IMG/VR virus record: IMGVR_UViG_3300041964_000008
Coordinates: 1-55,704 of that record
Origin: a virus
Taxonomy: Duplodnaviria > Caudoviricetes
Length of the DNA stretch: 55,704 nucleotides
Strand: one strand, 5' to 3'
Part shown: piece after piece, positions 602-49,436 of the stretch
Layout of the letters: each line of letters begins with the position of its first letter
Numbering within the stretch: position 1 is the first letter of the stretch
The notes under the pieces: generated by a model
What the model saw: the letters and a program-made list of their open reading frames with translations, nothing else
The model's database searches: none
What the model was told of the DNA's origin: nothing
Made by a program: the position numbers and the translations under genes

Positions 602-634
602 TAGGATCTCCTTGCTAGATGTGGATGTTTCTCT

Positions 635-688
635 CATTATGGGGCATGTATAAGGTGCGAAAGCTGTAAGCCCTTGTAGGGGGCTTAC
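635..688 (-). promoter_or_regulatory. Hairpin plus 26-bp conserved motif (TCGCA-N6-ACA-N5-CATAATG)
   Basis: Copy of the 22-fold repeated motif (635-660) with upstream hairpin (668-686). Confidence 0.8.
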
Positions 689-1308: not shown

Positions 1309-1338
1309 GAGGGTTTCCGTTCGGGTTGAGGGTTATGT

Positions 1339-1387
1339 CATTAGAGGCCCTGTTTTCCTTGCGAAACCGAAAGCCCTTGTGGGGCTC
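1339..1387 (-). promoter_or_regulatory. Hairpin plus 26-bp motif (TCGCA-N6-ACA-N5-TCTAATG)
   Basis: Repeat copy. Confidence 0.8.
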
Positions 1388-11624: not shown

Positions 11625-12539
11625 CTAGATCTTGTTCCAGATGGGTCCATCGACATTGAAGTCGAGGAAGATTTCGCCTTCAGGTCCCACGACCATCTCG
11701 TGGAACTGGTTCAACTCGTGATTGCGGAACACCTGGAAGTCGACGAAGCCGTCTCCAGTGTGACGCTCAGGGTTACGCGGATCAAATATCCAACCCGTCA
11801 CTGCTCCGGCCTTCGTGTCGGGCATACCGAGCTCACGGTATACCTCGTTCAGGAACAGGTGTCCCTTAGCACGAAGCTTGTCGTTGCAGTAAAGCTGAAC
11901 CGTCCTCAGGAACATCACGTTGTACGAGGACTGCTGCTGCCAGTTGGCATTCGAACGATCAAATATCACAGCGTACGGCTTCCGATTGCCGTCACCTGCG
12001 ACCTTCACGTTCTTCGTCACAGGACCTTCGTCAGTGTCCTCGACGATGGTCTTGTCGGTAGCACCGAATCGGTACTCCCGGTCCTTGTCAGCGCCGACGT
12101 CAGCGATGACACGAGCCCGGTAGTCGTTGAAAGCCTCCGTGGTGAGAGTAAGCGCTGCCGTCAGGCCGGCGTTCCTCTTCATAAGGATGCTGTGTGAACC
12201 AGCGAACATGCCCAAGGACAACAGTCCAAGGCCGATCGCCGGAGCATAGAGACGCGCCATCTGAGCGGTCGCCTCCATGTAGATGAACAGCATGTCCTTG
12301 TTGTACGCGGAAGTCGAGTAGACCTCCGTTGAGTGCCTCAGACGTCCAGCCTTGTGCTCCTTGATCTTATTCTCGATCAAAGTCAGCTCCGACTCAACGC
12401 GAAGCGTCGCCCGACAAGCCATGACCGTCGAGCCGATGGCGAGTGCTACGCCACCGGCGAATAGCAGAGTGGGGGAATTCTTCTGTGCGAGAATGACTGG
12501 TCTAGCCAGCATTCGTGTCAAGCCTTCGGGCAACTTCAT
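11625..12539 (-). CDS. DUF6353-like phage protein with N-terminal hydrophobic segment
   Basis: KNSPTLLFAGG...LFLNEVY..LG...GW pattern; resembles 16827-17617. Confidence 0.65.
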   Translation of the reverse strand: MKLPEGLTRMLARPVILAQKNSPTLLFAGGVALAIGSTVMACRATLRVESELTLIENKIKEHKAGRLRHSTEVYSTSAYNKDMLFIYMEATAQMARLYAPAIGLGLLSLGMFAGSHSILMKRNAGLTAALTLTTEAFNDYRARVIADVGADKDREYRFGATDKTIVEDTDEGPVTKNVKVAGDGNRKPYAVIFDRSNANWQQQSSYNVMFLRTVQLYCNDKLRAKGHLFLNEVYRELGMPDTKAGAVTGWIFDPRNPERHTGDGFVDFQVFRNHELNQFHEMVVGPEGEIFLDFNVDGPIWNKI

Positions 12540-16636: not shown

Positions 16637-16662
16637 TTCTACTCCTAGATTGTCGGTCATTT

Positions 16663-16688
16663 CATTAGAGGCCCTGTTTTCTTTGCGA
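16663..16688 (-). promoter_or_regulatory. 26-bp motif
   Basis: TCGCA-AAGAAA-ACA-GGGCC-TCTAATG. Confidence 0.8.
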
Positions 16689-16826: not shown

Positions 16827-17617
16827 TCACTGCATGTGGCTGTAGTTCCTGAGAGGGGCTGCATCGAAATCAAGCGAGATACACGGCCGTCCGTCATCGG
16901 CCAGAACTGGCGTCGGATCGATCTCGAACTCGTCACCCATGGCCGTCCAACCGACGTGATCGGACAACTTGGTGGCTGAAATACCGATCAGCTCGTAGAA
17001 GTCGGTCAACGACGCCTCATCGTTCTTCAAACGCTTGGCGTTGACCTTGTTCTGAGCATCCAGAATCGTGTGCATGTCACTGTAGAAATATCGCTCGGAC
17101 ATGGGGTCGAAGCACAGCACATCTCCTCCTCCCGTGATGATGATCTGTGCCTTGTTCGGAGGATGCCGATCGAACTTCTCCTTCGCCACCTCTGCACGCA
17201 CCTTCGACTCCTTGGTCAGGCCAAAGTGCTCTTTCACCTTGTCCTTGTACTCGGAGTGAGCACGCTGAGAGAGCGCAAAGGCGGTTGCCATAGCTGCTAC
17301 ACGCTGCGTGTTGATGCGATTCGCCATGACGATCGAGGCGATTGTTAGCGCTCCTGCTCCAATGGGCGGAATATAGAGCGTCCACAGAAGTCGTGTCTTG
17401 TCCATCCAGTCGACAGGCTTCGCGGTCCTCTTCGATGCCGTAGCATCTTTGGTTCGAGCGATGCGCTCCATCTGGAGGATGCCGGCGGACTTGTATGCAG
17501 CCCGTCCGGTCAAATATGCGGTTGCGACCGTGCCGAGTACTCCGATACCCGTCAGATGGTCGGTGAGTTGTCGGTGATGAGCTTGCCTGCTTTGTAGCTG
17601 AACTTGGAAAAGTCCAT
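16827..17617 (-). CDS. DUF6353-like protein, second paralog (5' frameshift near 17555)
   Basis: NSPT..TGIG start; SLTDFYELIG...GW...DGRPC end. Confidence 0.6.
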
Positions 17618-18016
17618 GGGGGTCTCCTTGTATAGGGGTCAGCTGCTCTTGCGGGTGAGTGTTCGGATCGTTCGAATGGCTTCCGCAAGAAGAATCAGCT
17701 TCATGCGATCGCGCCGGGACAGAATGAAGGTCATGGCGAACTTCATGCAGATCACTGCCCGATCGTACGTCGTTCGAGCGAAGTACAGACGCACGCCAAG
17801 CCAGAGAAGGCGTAAGCGTACGAGGAATATCATCGGCGCCTCATTCGCGGACGAAGATCCAGATGAGCCAGAGCCCACCCGTGAGCAACGTCATGATGAC
17901 GTCGCCCAAGAAGGCAAGGCATCCGTACTGCTCGAACGTTGGTCTGACCGGACTCGACGTGGCATAGCTCGTCATATCTCATGCGGATCCTTCCAATAGG
18001 GGGGGGTCGAAAAGTG

Positions 18017-18100
18017 TGAGAAGATGTATACGATGGATGGTCGTATCACTTCAAGTTCAGCGGCCGGGTTAGGGCTCGATGACTCATAAGTGTCTTCTCA
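18017..18100 (-). ncRNA. Candidate structured small RNA A
   Basis: Follows motif 18099-18124; terminal stem TGAGAAGA/TCTTCTCA; internal CACTT/AAGTG and ATACGA/TCGTAT stems; downstream T tract; no RBS or ORF. Confidence 0.65.
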
Positions 18101-18134
18101 TTAGGGGGCTTGTTTTTTTCGCGAGTCAAAAATT

Positions 18135-18260
18135 TGAGGAGAGGTATACGGCCCAACGAAAGCTGTATCGTTAACTAGCTGCTTGGTACTTGCTAGCACT
18201 CCGGGTAGGATTCTAACCTACACATTCGTGTCTCGGAAACTCTTTCGAGTTCTCTTCTCA
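18135..18260 (-). ncRNA. Candidate structured small RNA B (four internal hairpins, one T-arm-like)
   Basis: Follows motif 18259-18284; terminal stem TGAGAAGAG/CTCTCCTCA; GTAGG-TTAGAAT-CCTAC; T5 tract after the stem. Confidence 0.7.
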
Positions 18261-18291
18261 TTAGAGGCCCTGTTTTCTCTGCGAAACATGT

Positions 18292-18366
18292 AGACCATGT
18301 ATTCAATGACAGGCTTTAACTGGAATGATCTCTGCAGCGAAGTAATTGCTGAATTGCATGGTCTCA
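18292..18366 (-). ncRNA. Candidate structured small RNA C
   Basis: Follows motif 18365-18390; terminal stem AGACCATG..ATTCA/TGAAT.CATGGTCT. Confidence 0.55.
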
Positions 18367-18391
18367 TTAGAGGCCCTGTTTTCCTTGCGAA

Positions 18392-18423
18392 GAATAAGAG
18401 CCCGTGTTGGGGGACTCTTATTC
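18392..18423 (-). terminator. Cassette hairpin
   Basis: GAATAAGAG/CTCTTATTC inverted repeat. Confidence 0.7.
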
Positions 18424-18429
18424 GTGAAG

Positions 18430-18576
18430 CTACTTCTTGAGGGAGCGGACGGTCTTCTTTGTCGCTCCACCAAGCACTCGAACCACGAGCAGGATGAGTA
18501 GCACTGGGATGAGCAGTGCGATCATCATGATCGAGATATCGAAGGCGTTGGCGGAGATCGTATTCCAGATTTCCAT
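18430..18576 (-). CDS. 48-aa membrane peptide (MEIWNTISANAF...)
   Basis: GAAAGGA RBS; motif at 18603-18628; long hydrophobic helix. Confidence 0.75.
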   Translation of the reverse strand: MEIWNTISANAFDISIMMIALLIPVLLILLVVRVLGGATKKTVRSLKK

Positions 18577-46730: not shown

Positions 46731-49436
46731 TCATCCGCCTAGCTCCTTCTTCAGTGTGGTGAGGGAGACGCCTAGGGCAGCAGCGATCTCGCCTTGGGTG
46801 TAGCCCTGGTCAGCCATCTGTTTCGCTCTGTTGATCTTGGTGGAGGTCATCAGTTTGGTTGAACGGGGGGTTGCAAGAGCCTTCACGATGTCGAGGTCGG
46901 CATTGTCTAGGATTCGTGCTAACTTGGTAGGGCTGATTGCCCCAGCCTGCACGGCTTCCCACTCACGGGGGGTAATTTCGATCTTTTGTTTGCCTGCCCC
47001 CATTCGCATTCGTGCCTCAGTGAGTGCTTGTCCTTCAACCTTCTTGCGTGTAGCAGGGTCCATGTTTGGATTGGAGGCCACTTTAGCAGCGATGGCGGTA
47101 TTTGCAATGACCTGGGCCTGTCTTTCAAGGGGGGCATTGCGTTGCGCAATCTTTAGCTTTGCTGTTAGTGAATCAGCTTCAGCCTTGAATGCCTTGTTAG
47201 CCTGATTGTCATAAGGCTTGTTCTTGATCGAGAGAGTAGACAGACGAGCGTCATTGGCTAAGGCCTTCATTCGATTAGAATGATCGGCATAGATCTTCTC
47301 CATGACTGTAGGGTTAGGCCGTGATGTCAGAGTGTGAGCATCGTTGGTCTCAGCCAACTTAACAGACTGCTCTGTTAGAACCTTACGCAAACCTGTCTTA
47401 GTGAAGTAGTGCTCACCAGTCTCCTTATAGACCTTCTCACCAGTCTTAGGATCTATAGGTCCACCCTCAGAAGCCCTTCGCAGTCTACGCCTAGGTACAT
47501 CCGTTCGAGACGTAGCCCTAGAGATCAGTGTAGAGGATCCACCAGGACGACCACCTGTCTCTTTAGCCTGATACTTACGCTGTAGAGACACGATGTTGTT
47601 GTCTATGAAAGACTGCTTGTAGTTCAACTCATGGTTCACAGCATCGATGACAACCATAGCGTGACGTACAGCAGCAGCGATCTCATCAGGCTTAGCCTTC
47701 TTAAGAGTCATGTCTGTGATGAGGTTAGAGACAGACCCCATCTCAAAGCCCTTCTCACCTTCAGTCATCACCTTCATACCATCAAACTTAGGGTAACTCA
47801 GCTTGGCATCAAAGTCCTTTAGACCCTCTAATCGAGCAGTGGTCTTTATCTTGGGATTAGCGATAGGGTTCGGTATCACAAGGACTGTGTCACCATCAAA
47901 GTCTGCACCAGACAGGTGTCCAGCAACCTTGCTATGGATGCCCACTACATCCTTAGCTAGAGGACCAATGAGCTTTACAGCCTCAGGTTGACGATTGTTG
48001 ACTATCAGTTCAGGGATCTCGAACGTACCACCATGAGGGAAGCGAATCAGAGCGACTCGCTCTCCATGATCGTAGTTGGGCGCATAGATCTCTGTTACCT
48101 TCATGCTGTCGATAGGAAGAAGCACTTGTGTGCTCTGACGTGGCAGCTTGTGTGCCGTTAGCTCTACAGCTAAGGAGTCAGCACTATCAGCATAGCTCTC
48201 AAGAAGCTTCTTCTTGACTGTGGGGTTGGTGAGAGCCTTGATCTCGTCAAGTTCCATCTTTCGCTGTTCATGAGTCATAGACAATTGAGTTTTAGCCAGA
48301 ATAGGACTCTGCTTAGACAGAACTTGTGTAGAGATGACGTTTCTCCACTTGTCCCAGTCACCTTCCTTGTTCACAAGGTTCATTGCAGAGGTAACTTCGA
48401 GAATCGGCCCATCTGGATACTCACGTTTTCCGATTTGCTTGATAGTAGCCCCAAAAGGATTCTCAGGATCATCGGAAATCGGCTTTAGGACAGCTAGCTT
48501 GTCCTTGTACTTAGGATCGCTCTTAAGCTTGGGTGTATGGAATTGAATGTCCGTACCACGAGGAAGATCGTCCTTGTACATGGCCATACCCTTGATGTAG
48601 TGAGTACCATCAACCAAAATTCGAACTTGTGCGTAATTGGCACCTCCCAAAGAGAGGTCATCCTTACCAGGACGCAAATAGACCAATCCATCAAGCTTAG
48701 ATCCACCATCCTCACCGTACACGACCTTGATTCGACTTGAACTTACGGAAAGCGGAGACTTGGTTTGGTAGTACGACCGTCCACCGTCATCAGAGATCGT
48801 CGTGATGTCCTTGATCTGACCGAGATCTTTGACGAGGTCCTTATACGTAGTTCCAGGCTTAGCCAACACCTTAATAGTGGTCTTCTTACGACCACCAGTC
48901 CCGATTGTAGGTGTCTGAACTAGCTCATACGCATAACCTTCGGCTTTTAGGATGCTAACGGCCGTAGCAAGAAACTCCTTGCTCACATAGCGGTGATTCT
49001 CGACACCTCTACCAACATCGATAGCCCCTTTTTCCGCAATCTGGTCACGAAGCATTTGAGCAGTCGCTTTGAGGATGCTGACCTTCTCTAATTCGCCTGG
49101 CTTGAGAAGGCTTCGAACAGAAGACTCGTTAATCCCCATCTTCTCGCCAATAGCGATGTTCGACAGACCTTTATCCTTCAACTTCTGAGCAGTCGCGATG
49201 TCAGCTGCCTTTTTGGCGTTTCGAGCAATGGTCTTCGTGATTCTCAGATCTGTGGTGGACATATCAAGGCCTTTTGCGATTTGAAGATCCGTAAGACCCT
49301 TATCCTTCATCTCCTGGATGTAATCCGTGAACATCTTGCTTCGCTTGGCCTCAGTTCCACCAGAACCCCAAGGATAGCGACCTGACTTTCGAAGAATGCC
49401 GTAGTGTGCCAGATGTGCGCTTTCATCAATGATCAT
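46731..49436 (-). CDS. Putative single-subunit two-barrel RNA polymerase with HTH domains
   Basis: QVR-x7-IKG, LIRFPH and SGADFDGD (47889-47906); two N-terminal and one C-terminal HTH-like segments. Confidence 0.8.
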   Translation of the reverse strand: MIIDESAHLAHYGILRKSGRYPWGSGGTEAKRSKMFTDYIQEMKDKGLTDLQIAKGLDMSTTDLRITKTIARNAKKAADIATAQKLKDKGLSNIAIGEKMGINESSVRSLLKPGELEKVSILKATAQMLRDQIAEKGAIDVGRGVENHRYVSKEFLATAVSILKAEGYAYELVQTPTIGTGGRKKTTIKVLAKPGTTYKDLVKDLGQIKDITTISDDGGRSYYQTKSPLSVSSSRIKVVYGEDGGSKLDGLVYLRPGKDDLSLGGANYAQVRILVDGTHYIKGMAMYKDDLPRGTDIQFHTPKLKSDPKYKDKLAVLKPISDDPENPFGATIKQIGKREYPDGPILEVTSAMNLVNKEGDWDKWRNVISTQVLSKQSPILAKTQLSMTHEQRKMELDEIKALTNPTVKKKLLESYADSADSLAVELTAHKLPRQSTQVLLPIDSMKVTEIYAPNYDHGERVALIRFPHGGTFEIPELIVNNRQPEAVKLIGPLAKDVVGIHSKVAGHLSGADFDGDTVLVIPNPIANPKIKTTARLEGLKDFDAKLSYPKFDGMKVMTEGEKGFEMGSVSNLITDMTLKKAKPDEIAAAVRHAMVVIDAVNHELNYKQSFIDNNIVSLQRKYQAKETGGRPGGSSTLISRATSRTDVPRRRLRRASEGGPIDPKTGEKVYKETGEHYFTKTGLRKVLTEQSVKLAETNDAHTLTSRPNPTVMEKIYADHSNRMKALANDARLSTLSIKNKPYDNQANKAFKAEADSLTAKLKIAQRNAPLERQAQVIANTAIAAKVASNPNMDPATRKKVEGQALTEARMRMGAGKQKIEITPREWEAVQAGAISPTKLARILDNADLDIVKALATPRSTKLMTSTKINRAKQMADQGYTQGEIAAALGVSLTTLKKELGG

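Follow-up and report, generated by a model that had tools for sequence, protein, structure and literature searches.

A conserved structured RNA with a tRNA-type T-arm in phages related to Gordonia cluster DJ

Introduction

The core geometry of transfer RNA (tRNA) is reused by a number of RNAs that are not tRNAs, including the tRNA-like structures (TLS) of plant viruses and mascRNA, which employ it, sometimes together with pseudoknots, to engage factors that recognise tRNAs; these elements retain an acceptor-like end, and either occupy a 3' terminus or are released through cleavage by RNase P or RNase Z. A different arrangement is found in bacterial Y RNAs of the YrlA type (RF02553), which, in the account of Chen et al. 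2014 (PMC4201824), present an end-to-end stem, a less conserved hairpin, a T stem-loop, an intervening hairpin and a second conserved hairpin, in that order. The criteria described there place the RNA within ~4 kb of a same-strand Ro60 (TROVE) gene and require GNCGAAN0-1G near the 5' end; candidates are reported in 22 phages, and a Gordonia species is listed with a YrlA-like RNA. The subject of this work is RNA B, an element encoded on the minus strand of the IMG/VR record IMGVR_UViG_3300041964_000008, a complete virus record of 55,704 bases (completeness estimate, 93%) that was analysed over its entire length and is referred to here as the window. Comparison with homologues identifies RNA B as a member of an uncatalogued family of structured RNAs of ~125-135 nt, present in a subset of phages related to Gordonia DJ. 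An initial annotation had placed a mimic of the tRNA T-arm within a five-way junction at this site, and had read it as a tRNA-like decoy or as a T-loop tertiary module; the analysis described below partly confirms that observation and lends partial support to the interpretation.

Distribution of the family

Homologues were collected through BLAST against named phages, pattern scans of IMG/VR and metagenome contigs, a covariance model (R1) and a local nhmmer screen. This yielded 19 distinct sequences of the window type from uncultured soil phages (IMG/VR and metagenome contigs), duplicates having been set aside (L249, L253 (= L013), L254 (= L010), L272 (= L271), L275 (= L273), L274 (= L270) and L269 (= L232)). 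Among named phages, matches were obtained solely in Gordonia phages of cluster DJ, genus Tanisvirus (17 GenBank records, including Tanis, Gill, Avazak and Conley), where the matched interval carries no annotation; the large terminase (TerL) of the window is 85% identical to those of the same phages. The DJ version of the RNA is shorter, with four helices, and its core is identical in the 8 loci that were read.

R1 matches positions 18129-18259 with 143 bits, as a single copy within the window, and detects no copy in the whole records of the related phages JoyLin, Zeina and Rainydai, with Tanis serving as positive control, which indicates that in this group of phages the RNA is accessory. Scans of bacterial and archaeal genomes, one per species, which detect only sequences that fit the patterns employed, gave 0 matches with a strict pattern and 3 with a relaxed one, none of them a true homologue; these three scored 23.7 bits or received no score with R1, and were taken as chance. 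Two loose patterns used during collection returned mainly true tRNAs or chance matches, and R1 recognised one real homologue among ~235 such loci, matches of 24 bits or less being assumed to be tRNA-related or fortuitous. Rfam 15 gave 0 matches across the whole window at the gathering threshold, while at E<=10 around the locus it returned only noise (SmY and RMST_1, both outside RNA B). Literature searches, in the portions of the papers that they reached, recovered an earlier description of the promoter motif discussed below and none of RNA B.

A five-helix junction supported by covariation

The fold was evaluated on alignment A6, in which the 19 window-type sequences were aligned with MAFFT and not fitted to any structure (mean column identity, 69%); the DJ sequences were omitted because the model misaligns their P1 and P1a helices, and L348 because its RNA looked the same as that of L370. 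On A6, a model of 40 base pairs has 93.5% of its cells paired, versus 36-48% when partners are slid, and 27 of the 40 pairs vary on both sides; the observed values were reached in 0 of 500 shuffles, and an earlier test with 9 sequences gave the same picture. The fold of the single sequence has a z of -1.44, with 19 of 200 shuffles equally stable, and its minimum-energy form favours an ACAC/GTGT hairpin that overlaps the T-arm, so that the significance of RNA B derives from its homologues and not from its own sequence alone. RNA B is not coding, since the compensatory changes keep stems rather than codons. These comparisons identify positions 18128-18259 (minus strand) as a conserved structured RNA and not a chance fold, and demonstrate the family, its helices, its T-arm and one covarying pair of a pseudoknot. 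The elements of the RNA are as follows, all on the minus strand:

18128-18259, minus strand: RNA B, entire, from the first base after the -10 hexamer through the end of the T-run
18252-18259, minus strand: 5' strand of P1, GAGAAGAG, partner of 18136-18143; P1 is 89% paired
18238-18251, minus strand: P1a hairpin, AACTC-GAAA-GAGTT, a variable arm; 4 of 5 pairs change on both sides, 75.8% paired
18234-18237, minus strand: 5' strand of P2, TCCG, partner of CGGA at 18200-18203; 100% paired, 4 of 4 pairs covary
18225-18229, minus strand: 5' strand of the candidate pseudoknot, ACGAA, within the invariant block AGACAC-AAUG; partner UUCGU of the P4 loop
18205-18221, minus strand: T-arm, stem GTAGG, loop TTAGAAT, stem CCTAC; paired in 19 of 19, 3 of 5 pairs covary
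18174-18197, minus strand: P3 hairpin, GCTAGC/GCTAGT, loop AAGTACCAAGCA; 99.1% paired, 4 of 6 pairs covary
18146-18168, minus strand: P4 hairpin, ATACAGC/GCCGTAT, loop TTTCGTTGG (18153-18161); 95% paired, 7 of 7 pairs covary
18156-18160, minus strand: 3' strand of the candidate pseudoknot, UUCGU, bases of the P4 loop
18136-18143, minus strand: 3' strand of P1, CTCTCCTC, partner of 18252-18259
18128-18132, minus strand: T-run, 3 nt past P1, a possible termination point

The main junction is thus formed by five helices, P1, P1a, P2, P3 and P4, with the T-arm enclosed by P2. The five-way junction of the initial annotation holds in number, but the set of helices differs: its closing stem GAGAAGAG/CTCTCCTC and its CTAGC/GCTAG and ATACAGC/GCCGTAT arms correspond to P1, P3 and P4, whereas its arm CTCGAAAG/TTTCCGAG cannot form a hairpin because the two halves are only 2 nt apart, and covariation supports P1a and P2 instead. 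Compensated variants of P1 occur, upon manual reading of the sequences, in L270 (UAGAGGAG/CUCCUCUA), L252 and L232, and the 5' strand of P2 takes the forms UCCG, UCUG, GCUA, AUCA, ACUG, GCCA and GGUA. In the P4 loop, bases T99-T101 and G103-G107 are invariant among the 19 sequences. The DJ version is devoid of P1a and has a P3 with a tetraloop, while P2 (GGCG/CGCC), the T-arm, the invariant block and P4 are kept.

The strands of P1 have some further features. The 3' strand and its flank (18136-18144, minus strand) form a pyrimidine tract, ACCUCUCCUC in the window and CACCUCCUCU in L270 and L370, which resembles the anti-Shine-Dalgarno end of 16S rRNA, while the 5' strand is Shine-Dalgarno-like, with AGGAG in L270 and L370. 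For the 3' strand, the ribosome-binding site of the gene that follows is another conceivable partner. In L273 (2380-2415, minus strand) and L277 (4860-4900, plus strand), an alternative hairpin is available, in which the 3' strand CUCCUCAC pairs beyond the T-run with a GUGAGGAG located downstream; neither the window nor the remaining homologues showed such a hairpin.

The T-arm and its loop

The T-arm at 18205-18221, present as originally described, is judged to be real on the basis of its homologues. Its covarying pairs (GC 17/CG 2, UA 13/CG 6 and AU 18/GC 1) generate the stems GUAGG/CCUAC, GCAGG/CCUGC, CCAGG/CCUGG and GUGGG/CCCAC, while in the rival ACAC/GUGU hairpin 12 of 76 cells are unpaired and none of these losses is compensated.

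Conservation of the loop had been chosen beforehand as the observation on which the T-arm should stand or fall, and it was found in every sequence: the loop measures 7 nt throughout, in the 19 window-type sequences as in the 8 DJ loci read, with U1 and A5 invariant and a purine always at position 4, while positions 2, 3, 6 and 7 vary. Nine distinct loops occur among the 19 sequences: the canonical TTCGAAT in 8; TTAGAAT (that of the window included), TTCAAAT and TGAAAAC in 2 each; and TTTAAAT, TCCGAAC, TTCAAAC, TTGGACT and TGTAAAC in 1 each. The loop of the DJ phages reads TGAAAAT. Because several of the search patterns fixed parts of the T-arm, the rule was rechecked on an independent set, and holds in 7 distinct sequences found through a pattern confined to P4 and the 3' end. 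Hairpins of this kind (5-bp stem, 7-nt loop of the form T[TG]N[AG]A) number 3 in the window, which is within the range of chance: 100 mononucleotide shuffles average 1.58 and reach at most 5. The rule agrees with the general T-loop motif as outlined in PMC4810234.

Candidate tertiary contacts

The P4 loop bases UUCGU are complementary to ACGAA, located within the invariant block just 5' of the T-arm. The middle pair of this candidate pseudoknot is UA in 9 sequences, GC in 8 and other in 2 (n=19), and U-A in the DJ loci, while the four flanking pairs are invariant. On the tree, the base that follows ACAC (G or U) changes at least 6 times, and its partner, the fourth base of the P4 loop (C or A), never moves the opposite way. 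A mini-hairpin, ACA-CGAA-UGU, was also considered for this region; it is 93% paired, never covaries and has its outer pair broken in 4 sequences, and it was rejected in favour of the pseudoknot.

A second, weaker contact comes from a scan of 148 columns, in which the best partner of position 3 of the T-loop is a base of the P3 loop (in the window, A18214 with U18188). The pair is CG in 11 sequences, AU in 1 (the window), GC in 1, UG in 1 and other in 4, which makes 14 standard pairs out of 18, where shuffles give 51%. In the window, T-loop position 3 has gone from C to A and the P3-loop base from G to U, and in the model the unusual loop of the window (TTAGAAT, not TTCRAAT) would be tolerated because the P3 loop has changed to match. 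If real, this pair would be the counterpart of G19-C56 in the tRNA elbow, with the adjacent, largely conserved G acting as G18. Of the T-loop tertiary module proposed at the outset, the sequence rule is followed by all sequences, and the long-range partner is a candidate identified post hoc.

Comparison with tRNA, tmRNA and Y RNAs

RNA B shares with tRNA a 5-bp T-stem closed by G-C and a 7-nt loop with the equivalents of U54, R57 and A58; position 3 is free for distant pairing in both, and the canonical UUCGAAU loop is present in 8 of 19 homologues. Unlike in tRNA, position 2 of the loop can be U, G or C and position 3 any base, and RNA B has neither a cloverleaf nor an acceptor end nor an anticodon arm, and so cannot be charged or decode. 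As had been predicted, ARAGORN identified no tRNA or transfer-messenger RNA (tmRNA) gene in the window, nor one at the RNA in the 19 homologue loci. The Rfam models for tRNA, tmRNA, Y RNA and YrlA also failed to match, even at E<=10, around the locus, and the tRNA model did not match at E<=1 in 10 homologue loci. RNA B is like tmRNA in carrying a T-arm inside a larger transcript that is not a tRNA, but has no CCA-bearing acceptor stem and no tag reading frame; unlike TLS and mascRNA, it is closed by its own termini.

The closest resemblance in layout is to YrlA. The initial annotation held that the order of arms is not that of a tRNA and that there is no CCA end, which stands; the order is nevertheless not arbitrary, since P1, P1a, the T-arm in P2, P3 and P4 follow one another as do the elements that PMC4201824 reports for YrlA. 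Both RNAs are non-coding, have paired ends and a tRNA-like module, lack an end that can be aminoacylated as transcribed, and are found in actinobacterial phages. The differences are equally specific: in RNA B the T-arm is enclosed by an additional 4-bp P2, P4 has a 7-bp stem and a pseudoknotted loop and is not a classical D-arm, and the candidate partner of the T-loop is the loop of the intervening hairpin (P3) rather than a D-loop. Searches with RF02553 recovered nothing from the window (E<=10) or from 10 homologue loci (E<=1), and a six-frame search of the whole record (55.7 kb) for TROVE/Ro60 was empty at E<=1, whereas control genomes responded. The Rsr-binding motif GNCGAAN0-1G is absent from A6, the nearest strings (CACGAAUG and CACUAAUG) being internal and having C at the required G. 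R1 does not match the record of phage Bxz1, which bears a YrlA-like RNA beside a Ro60 gene and in which the T-arm continues straight into an acceptor-like stem, followed by a classical 4-bp D-arm.

The Bxz1 RNA, located upstream of the Ro60 gene (L263 1455-1610; record 129933-130088), scores 32.5 bits against RF02553, whose gathering score is 69, which means that the Rfam YrlA model misses at least this member at its curated threshold.

Promoter-like motif and transcript ends

RNA B lies within a non-coding stretch of ~410 nt (~17985-18400) bordered by the small ORFs 18430-18576 and 17841-17975; the long ORFs of the window that match phage protein families are all on the minus strand. A promoter-like motif stands directly upstream of the RNA, both here and in all homologues. 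Its 12-mer core has 7 matches in the window versus 0.66 expected, 6 of which are on the minus strand, and these six copies share a motif of ~30 nt (TTCGCA, 14 nt, T[C/A]TAAT or a near variant, then GA):

18260-18285, minus strand: promoter-like motif directly upstream of RNA B; TTCGCA (18285-18280), 14-nt spacer, TCTAAT (18265-18260)
632-643, minus strand: motif copy directly after a hairpin, upstream of a coding ORF
1336-1347, minus strand: motif copy directly after a hairpin, upstream of a coding ORF
16660-16671, minus strand: motif copy upstream of a coding ORF
18096-18107, minus strand: motif copy upstream of a coding ORF, by ~120 nt (the three preceding copies by 25-35 nt)
18256-18267, minus strand: motif copy before a non-coding stretch, that of RNA B
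18362-18373, minus strand: motif copy directly after a hairpin, before a non-coding stretch

Three copies are thus in tandem at the RNA locus, RNA B being the unit that follows the middle one. The genome announcements of the DJ phages Vardy and Conley term the same motif a sigma-70-type promoter (PMC9671010, PMC10868162).

At 14 nt, the spacer that separates the two conserved blocks is shorter than a standard -35/-10 pair would need. A protein of 901 residues (46731-49436, minus strand) has a full-length match to PHROG 4291 ('RNA-dependent RNA polymerase'), with a DFDGD loop at residues 512-516 and helix-turn-helix (HTH) matches at both ends, including matches like sigma-70 region 4 at 866-899. 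A preprint (bioRxiv 10.1101/842583) proposes that the PHROG 4291 type is a single-chain RNA polymerase like YonO/RdRP in this phage supercluster, and the 901-residue protein may be the reader of the conserved promoter motif.

The 5' strand of P1 begins 1 nt after the -10 hexamer, while sigma-70 usually starts at the seventh base after the hexamer, an A in all six promoter copies; the 5' end of the RNA is an inference. Outer pairs of P1 are nonetheless compensated in L270, L232 and L252 (manual reading of the sequences). Three explanations for this overlap of P1 and promoter can be considered: a start unusually near the -10 hexamer, a P1 that is made only in transcripts coming from upstream, or a different polymerase that reads the motif. 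At the other end, a run of at least 4 T occurs within 10 nt after P1 in 16 of the 19 window-type sequences (manual count); in L267 it lies 11 nt after P1, while L271 (CACTTTATTTCTT) and L276 (CTAACTTT) have a 3-T run only. A T-run also follows the RNA in 8 of 8 DJ loci, and transcripts may terminate at this point.

Two neighbouring units were noted. RNA A (18268-18361, minus strand) and RNA C (17985-18095, minus strand) both start with GAGA directly after the promoter-like motif and could close upon themselves, RNA A through GAGACCATG/CATGGTCT and RNA C through GAGAAGA/TCTTCTC and then ACACTTTT; neither has homologues among 384 collected loci. Part of the stretch is contained in three DNA sequencing runs from biocrust metagenomes, and the sequencing-run listing for it includes no RNA run.

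A proposed mimic of tRNA shape and its alternatives

RNA B most likely builds a fold like the core of tRNA. The closing helix P1 would join the two ends of the RNA, with P1a, P2 carrying the T-arm, P3 and P4 as branches; the T-loop would form a pentaloop closed by U1 and A5, its position 3 pairing with the P3-loop base that lies beside the largely conserved G, as an analogue of G19-C56 and G18, and the P4 loop would pair with the invariant strand just 5' of the T-arm in a 5-bp version of the contact between D-loop and variable loop. Such a molecule would offer a surface similar to the tRNA elbow to some factor, of host or phage origin, that reads tRNA shape, and would serve as decoy, scaffold or processing signal in the non-structural phase of infection. 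A mimic of tRNA shape that acts in trans is the reading tentatively preferred here over that of a cis-acting leader, as a possibility and not as a probability. One form that it could take, itself unlikely, is an orphan decoy of a lytic actinophage, similar to Y RNA but of independent origin and without a phage Ro60, in which the T-loop, the G19-C56-like elbow pair and a pseudoknotted surrogate of the D-loop/variable-loop contact make up a self-contained tRNA core, and that captures a host reader of tRNA shape in trans; candidates for the captured factor would include host Rsr-PNPase, RNase P or RNase Z, enzymes that modify the T-loop, and a defence nuclease directed at tRNA.

Several observations weigh against a trans-acting mimic. 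In 13 of the 19 window-type sequences no promoter motif is found between the RNA and the next ORF, which favours a role in cis, and in these the next ORF often begins 20-60 nt past the T-run, making the RNA the 5' leader of the gene. No partner protein co-varies with the RNA. The covariation of the pseudoknot comes from one pair, and a phylogeny-aware sign test gave a median p of 0.25, with only 3 well-supported independent pairs, so that it cannot reach significance; this covariation is equally compatible with pairing within one molecule or between two alike. The elbow pair, selected post hoc out of 148 columns, has 4 exceptions; among sequences whose P3 loop differs, and also in the DJ phages, it is unclear. 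Finally, a standard sigma-70 start would leave only ~2 bp of P1 in transcripts made from the RNA's own promoter.

The first rival is a cis-acting 5' leader (riboswitch, attenuator or insulator) whose fold would control read-through at P1 and the T-run into the genes that follow, those of a small membrane protein and of DUF6353, a reading that is doubtful but the more serious of the rivals. The T-loop and pseudoknot would then do nothing beyond building an aptamer-like fold, and in one variant P1 would form only in transcripts derived from upstream, stopping them, while those from the RNA's own promoter run on; the overlap of the P1 5' strand with the region before the expected sigma-70 start fits such an arrangement, as do the T-run after the P1 3' strand and L250, L252, L232 and L270, in which no terminator hairpin lies between the upstream sequence and the motif (manual reading). 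Aptamers typically have highly conserved bases in junctions and loops, and the genes that follow are recurrent: in 14 of 22 loci the next conserved gene encodes a small membrane protein, and in 18 of 22 an ORF of the DUF6353 family starts 0.1-2.2 kb downstream of the AGACAC core. The window encodes two paralogous proteins of this family (PF19880, phrog_2152; 16827-17513 and 11625-12539, both on the minus strand), whose GenBank names are 'membrane protein' or 'hypothetical protein' and for which no solved structural relative was found. DUF6353 was dropped as a specific partner of the RNA because relatives that lack the RNA also carry it (2-3 matches); it has no known function. What speaks for a separate transcription unit is the second promoter copy found after the RNA in 6 of the 19 window-type sequences and in all 8 DJ loci, where the RNA is still conserved, with compensatory changes. 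In addition, the downstream gene is a different one in the DJ phages, no gene related to a ligand lies nearby, and an alternation of terminator and antiterminator is not a property of the family, the extra hairpin being limited to L273 and L277.

The remaining rivals are further removed from the data. A divergent YrlA-type Y RNA, which would be a permuted mimic of tRNA working with host Ro60/Rsr, would account for the order of elements and for the reported presence of YrlA candidates in phages and in a Gordonia (PMC4201824), but the lack of an RF02553 match, of a Ro60 gene and of GNCGAAN0-1G, together with the dissimilar T-arm and D-arm of Bxz1 and the failure of R1 to detect that RNA, make it improbable. 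Still less probable is that ACGAA and UUCGU pair between molecules and produce dimers or rings as a scaffold: the covariation would allow it, but both strands lie in one compact junction, where an intramolecular pseudoknot is simpler, and the phage has a standard large terminase and the RNA is absent from most of its relatives. The packaging RNA of phi29 is the model for such an intermolecular loop-loop scaffold. The reading of RNA B as a functionless leftover, either of a degenerate or incomplete tRNA gene or, in the manner of an attP, of the 3' end of a host tRNA, can be set aside as effectively refuted by the covariation. It is suggested by the canonical TTCGAAT loop, by the versions of L011 and L013, which match real phage tRNA genes over 21-26 nt with 92-100% identity, and by L270 (4497-4711, plus strand), where Lys-UUU and Glu-UUC tRNA genes lie ~1.2 kb upstream of the RNA. 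All helices that are foreign to tRNA covary, however, which is unexpected for a decaying remnant; neither type of integrase was found, ARAGORN and the Rfam tRNA model returned nothing at the RNA in any locus tested, both an acceptor end and an anticodon arm are missing, and the column identity given above shows that the homologues are not recent copies of one sequence.

Conclusions

Few phage-encoded structured RNAs are known, and fewer have comparable comparative support; RNA B joins strong covariation, a pseudoknot and a bona fide T-arm in one molecule. It is present in cultured and easily handled Gordonia phages, among them Tanis, Gill, Avazak and Conley. Should RNA B be a mimic of tRNA shape, it would be a phage-borne case separate in origin from YrlA, and would point to a host process that is manipulated during infection; should it be a leader, it would be a candidate for a new class of regulatory RNA. 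In either case, the family is ready for inclusion in RNA databases.

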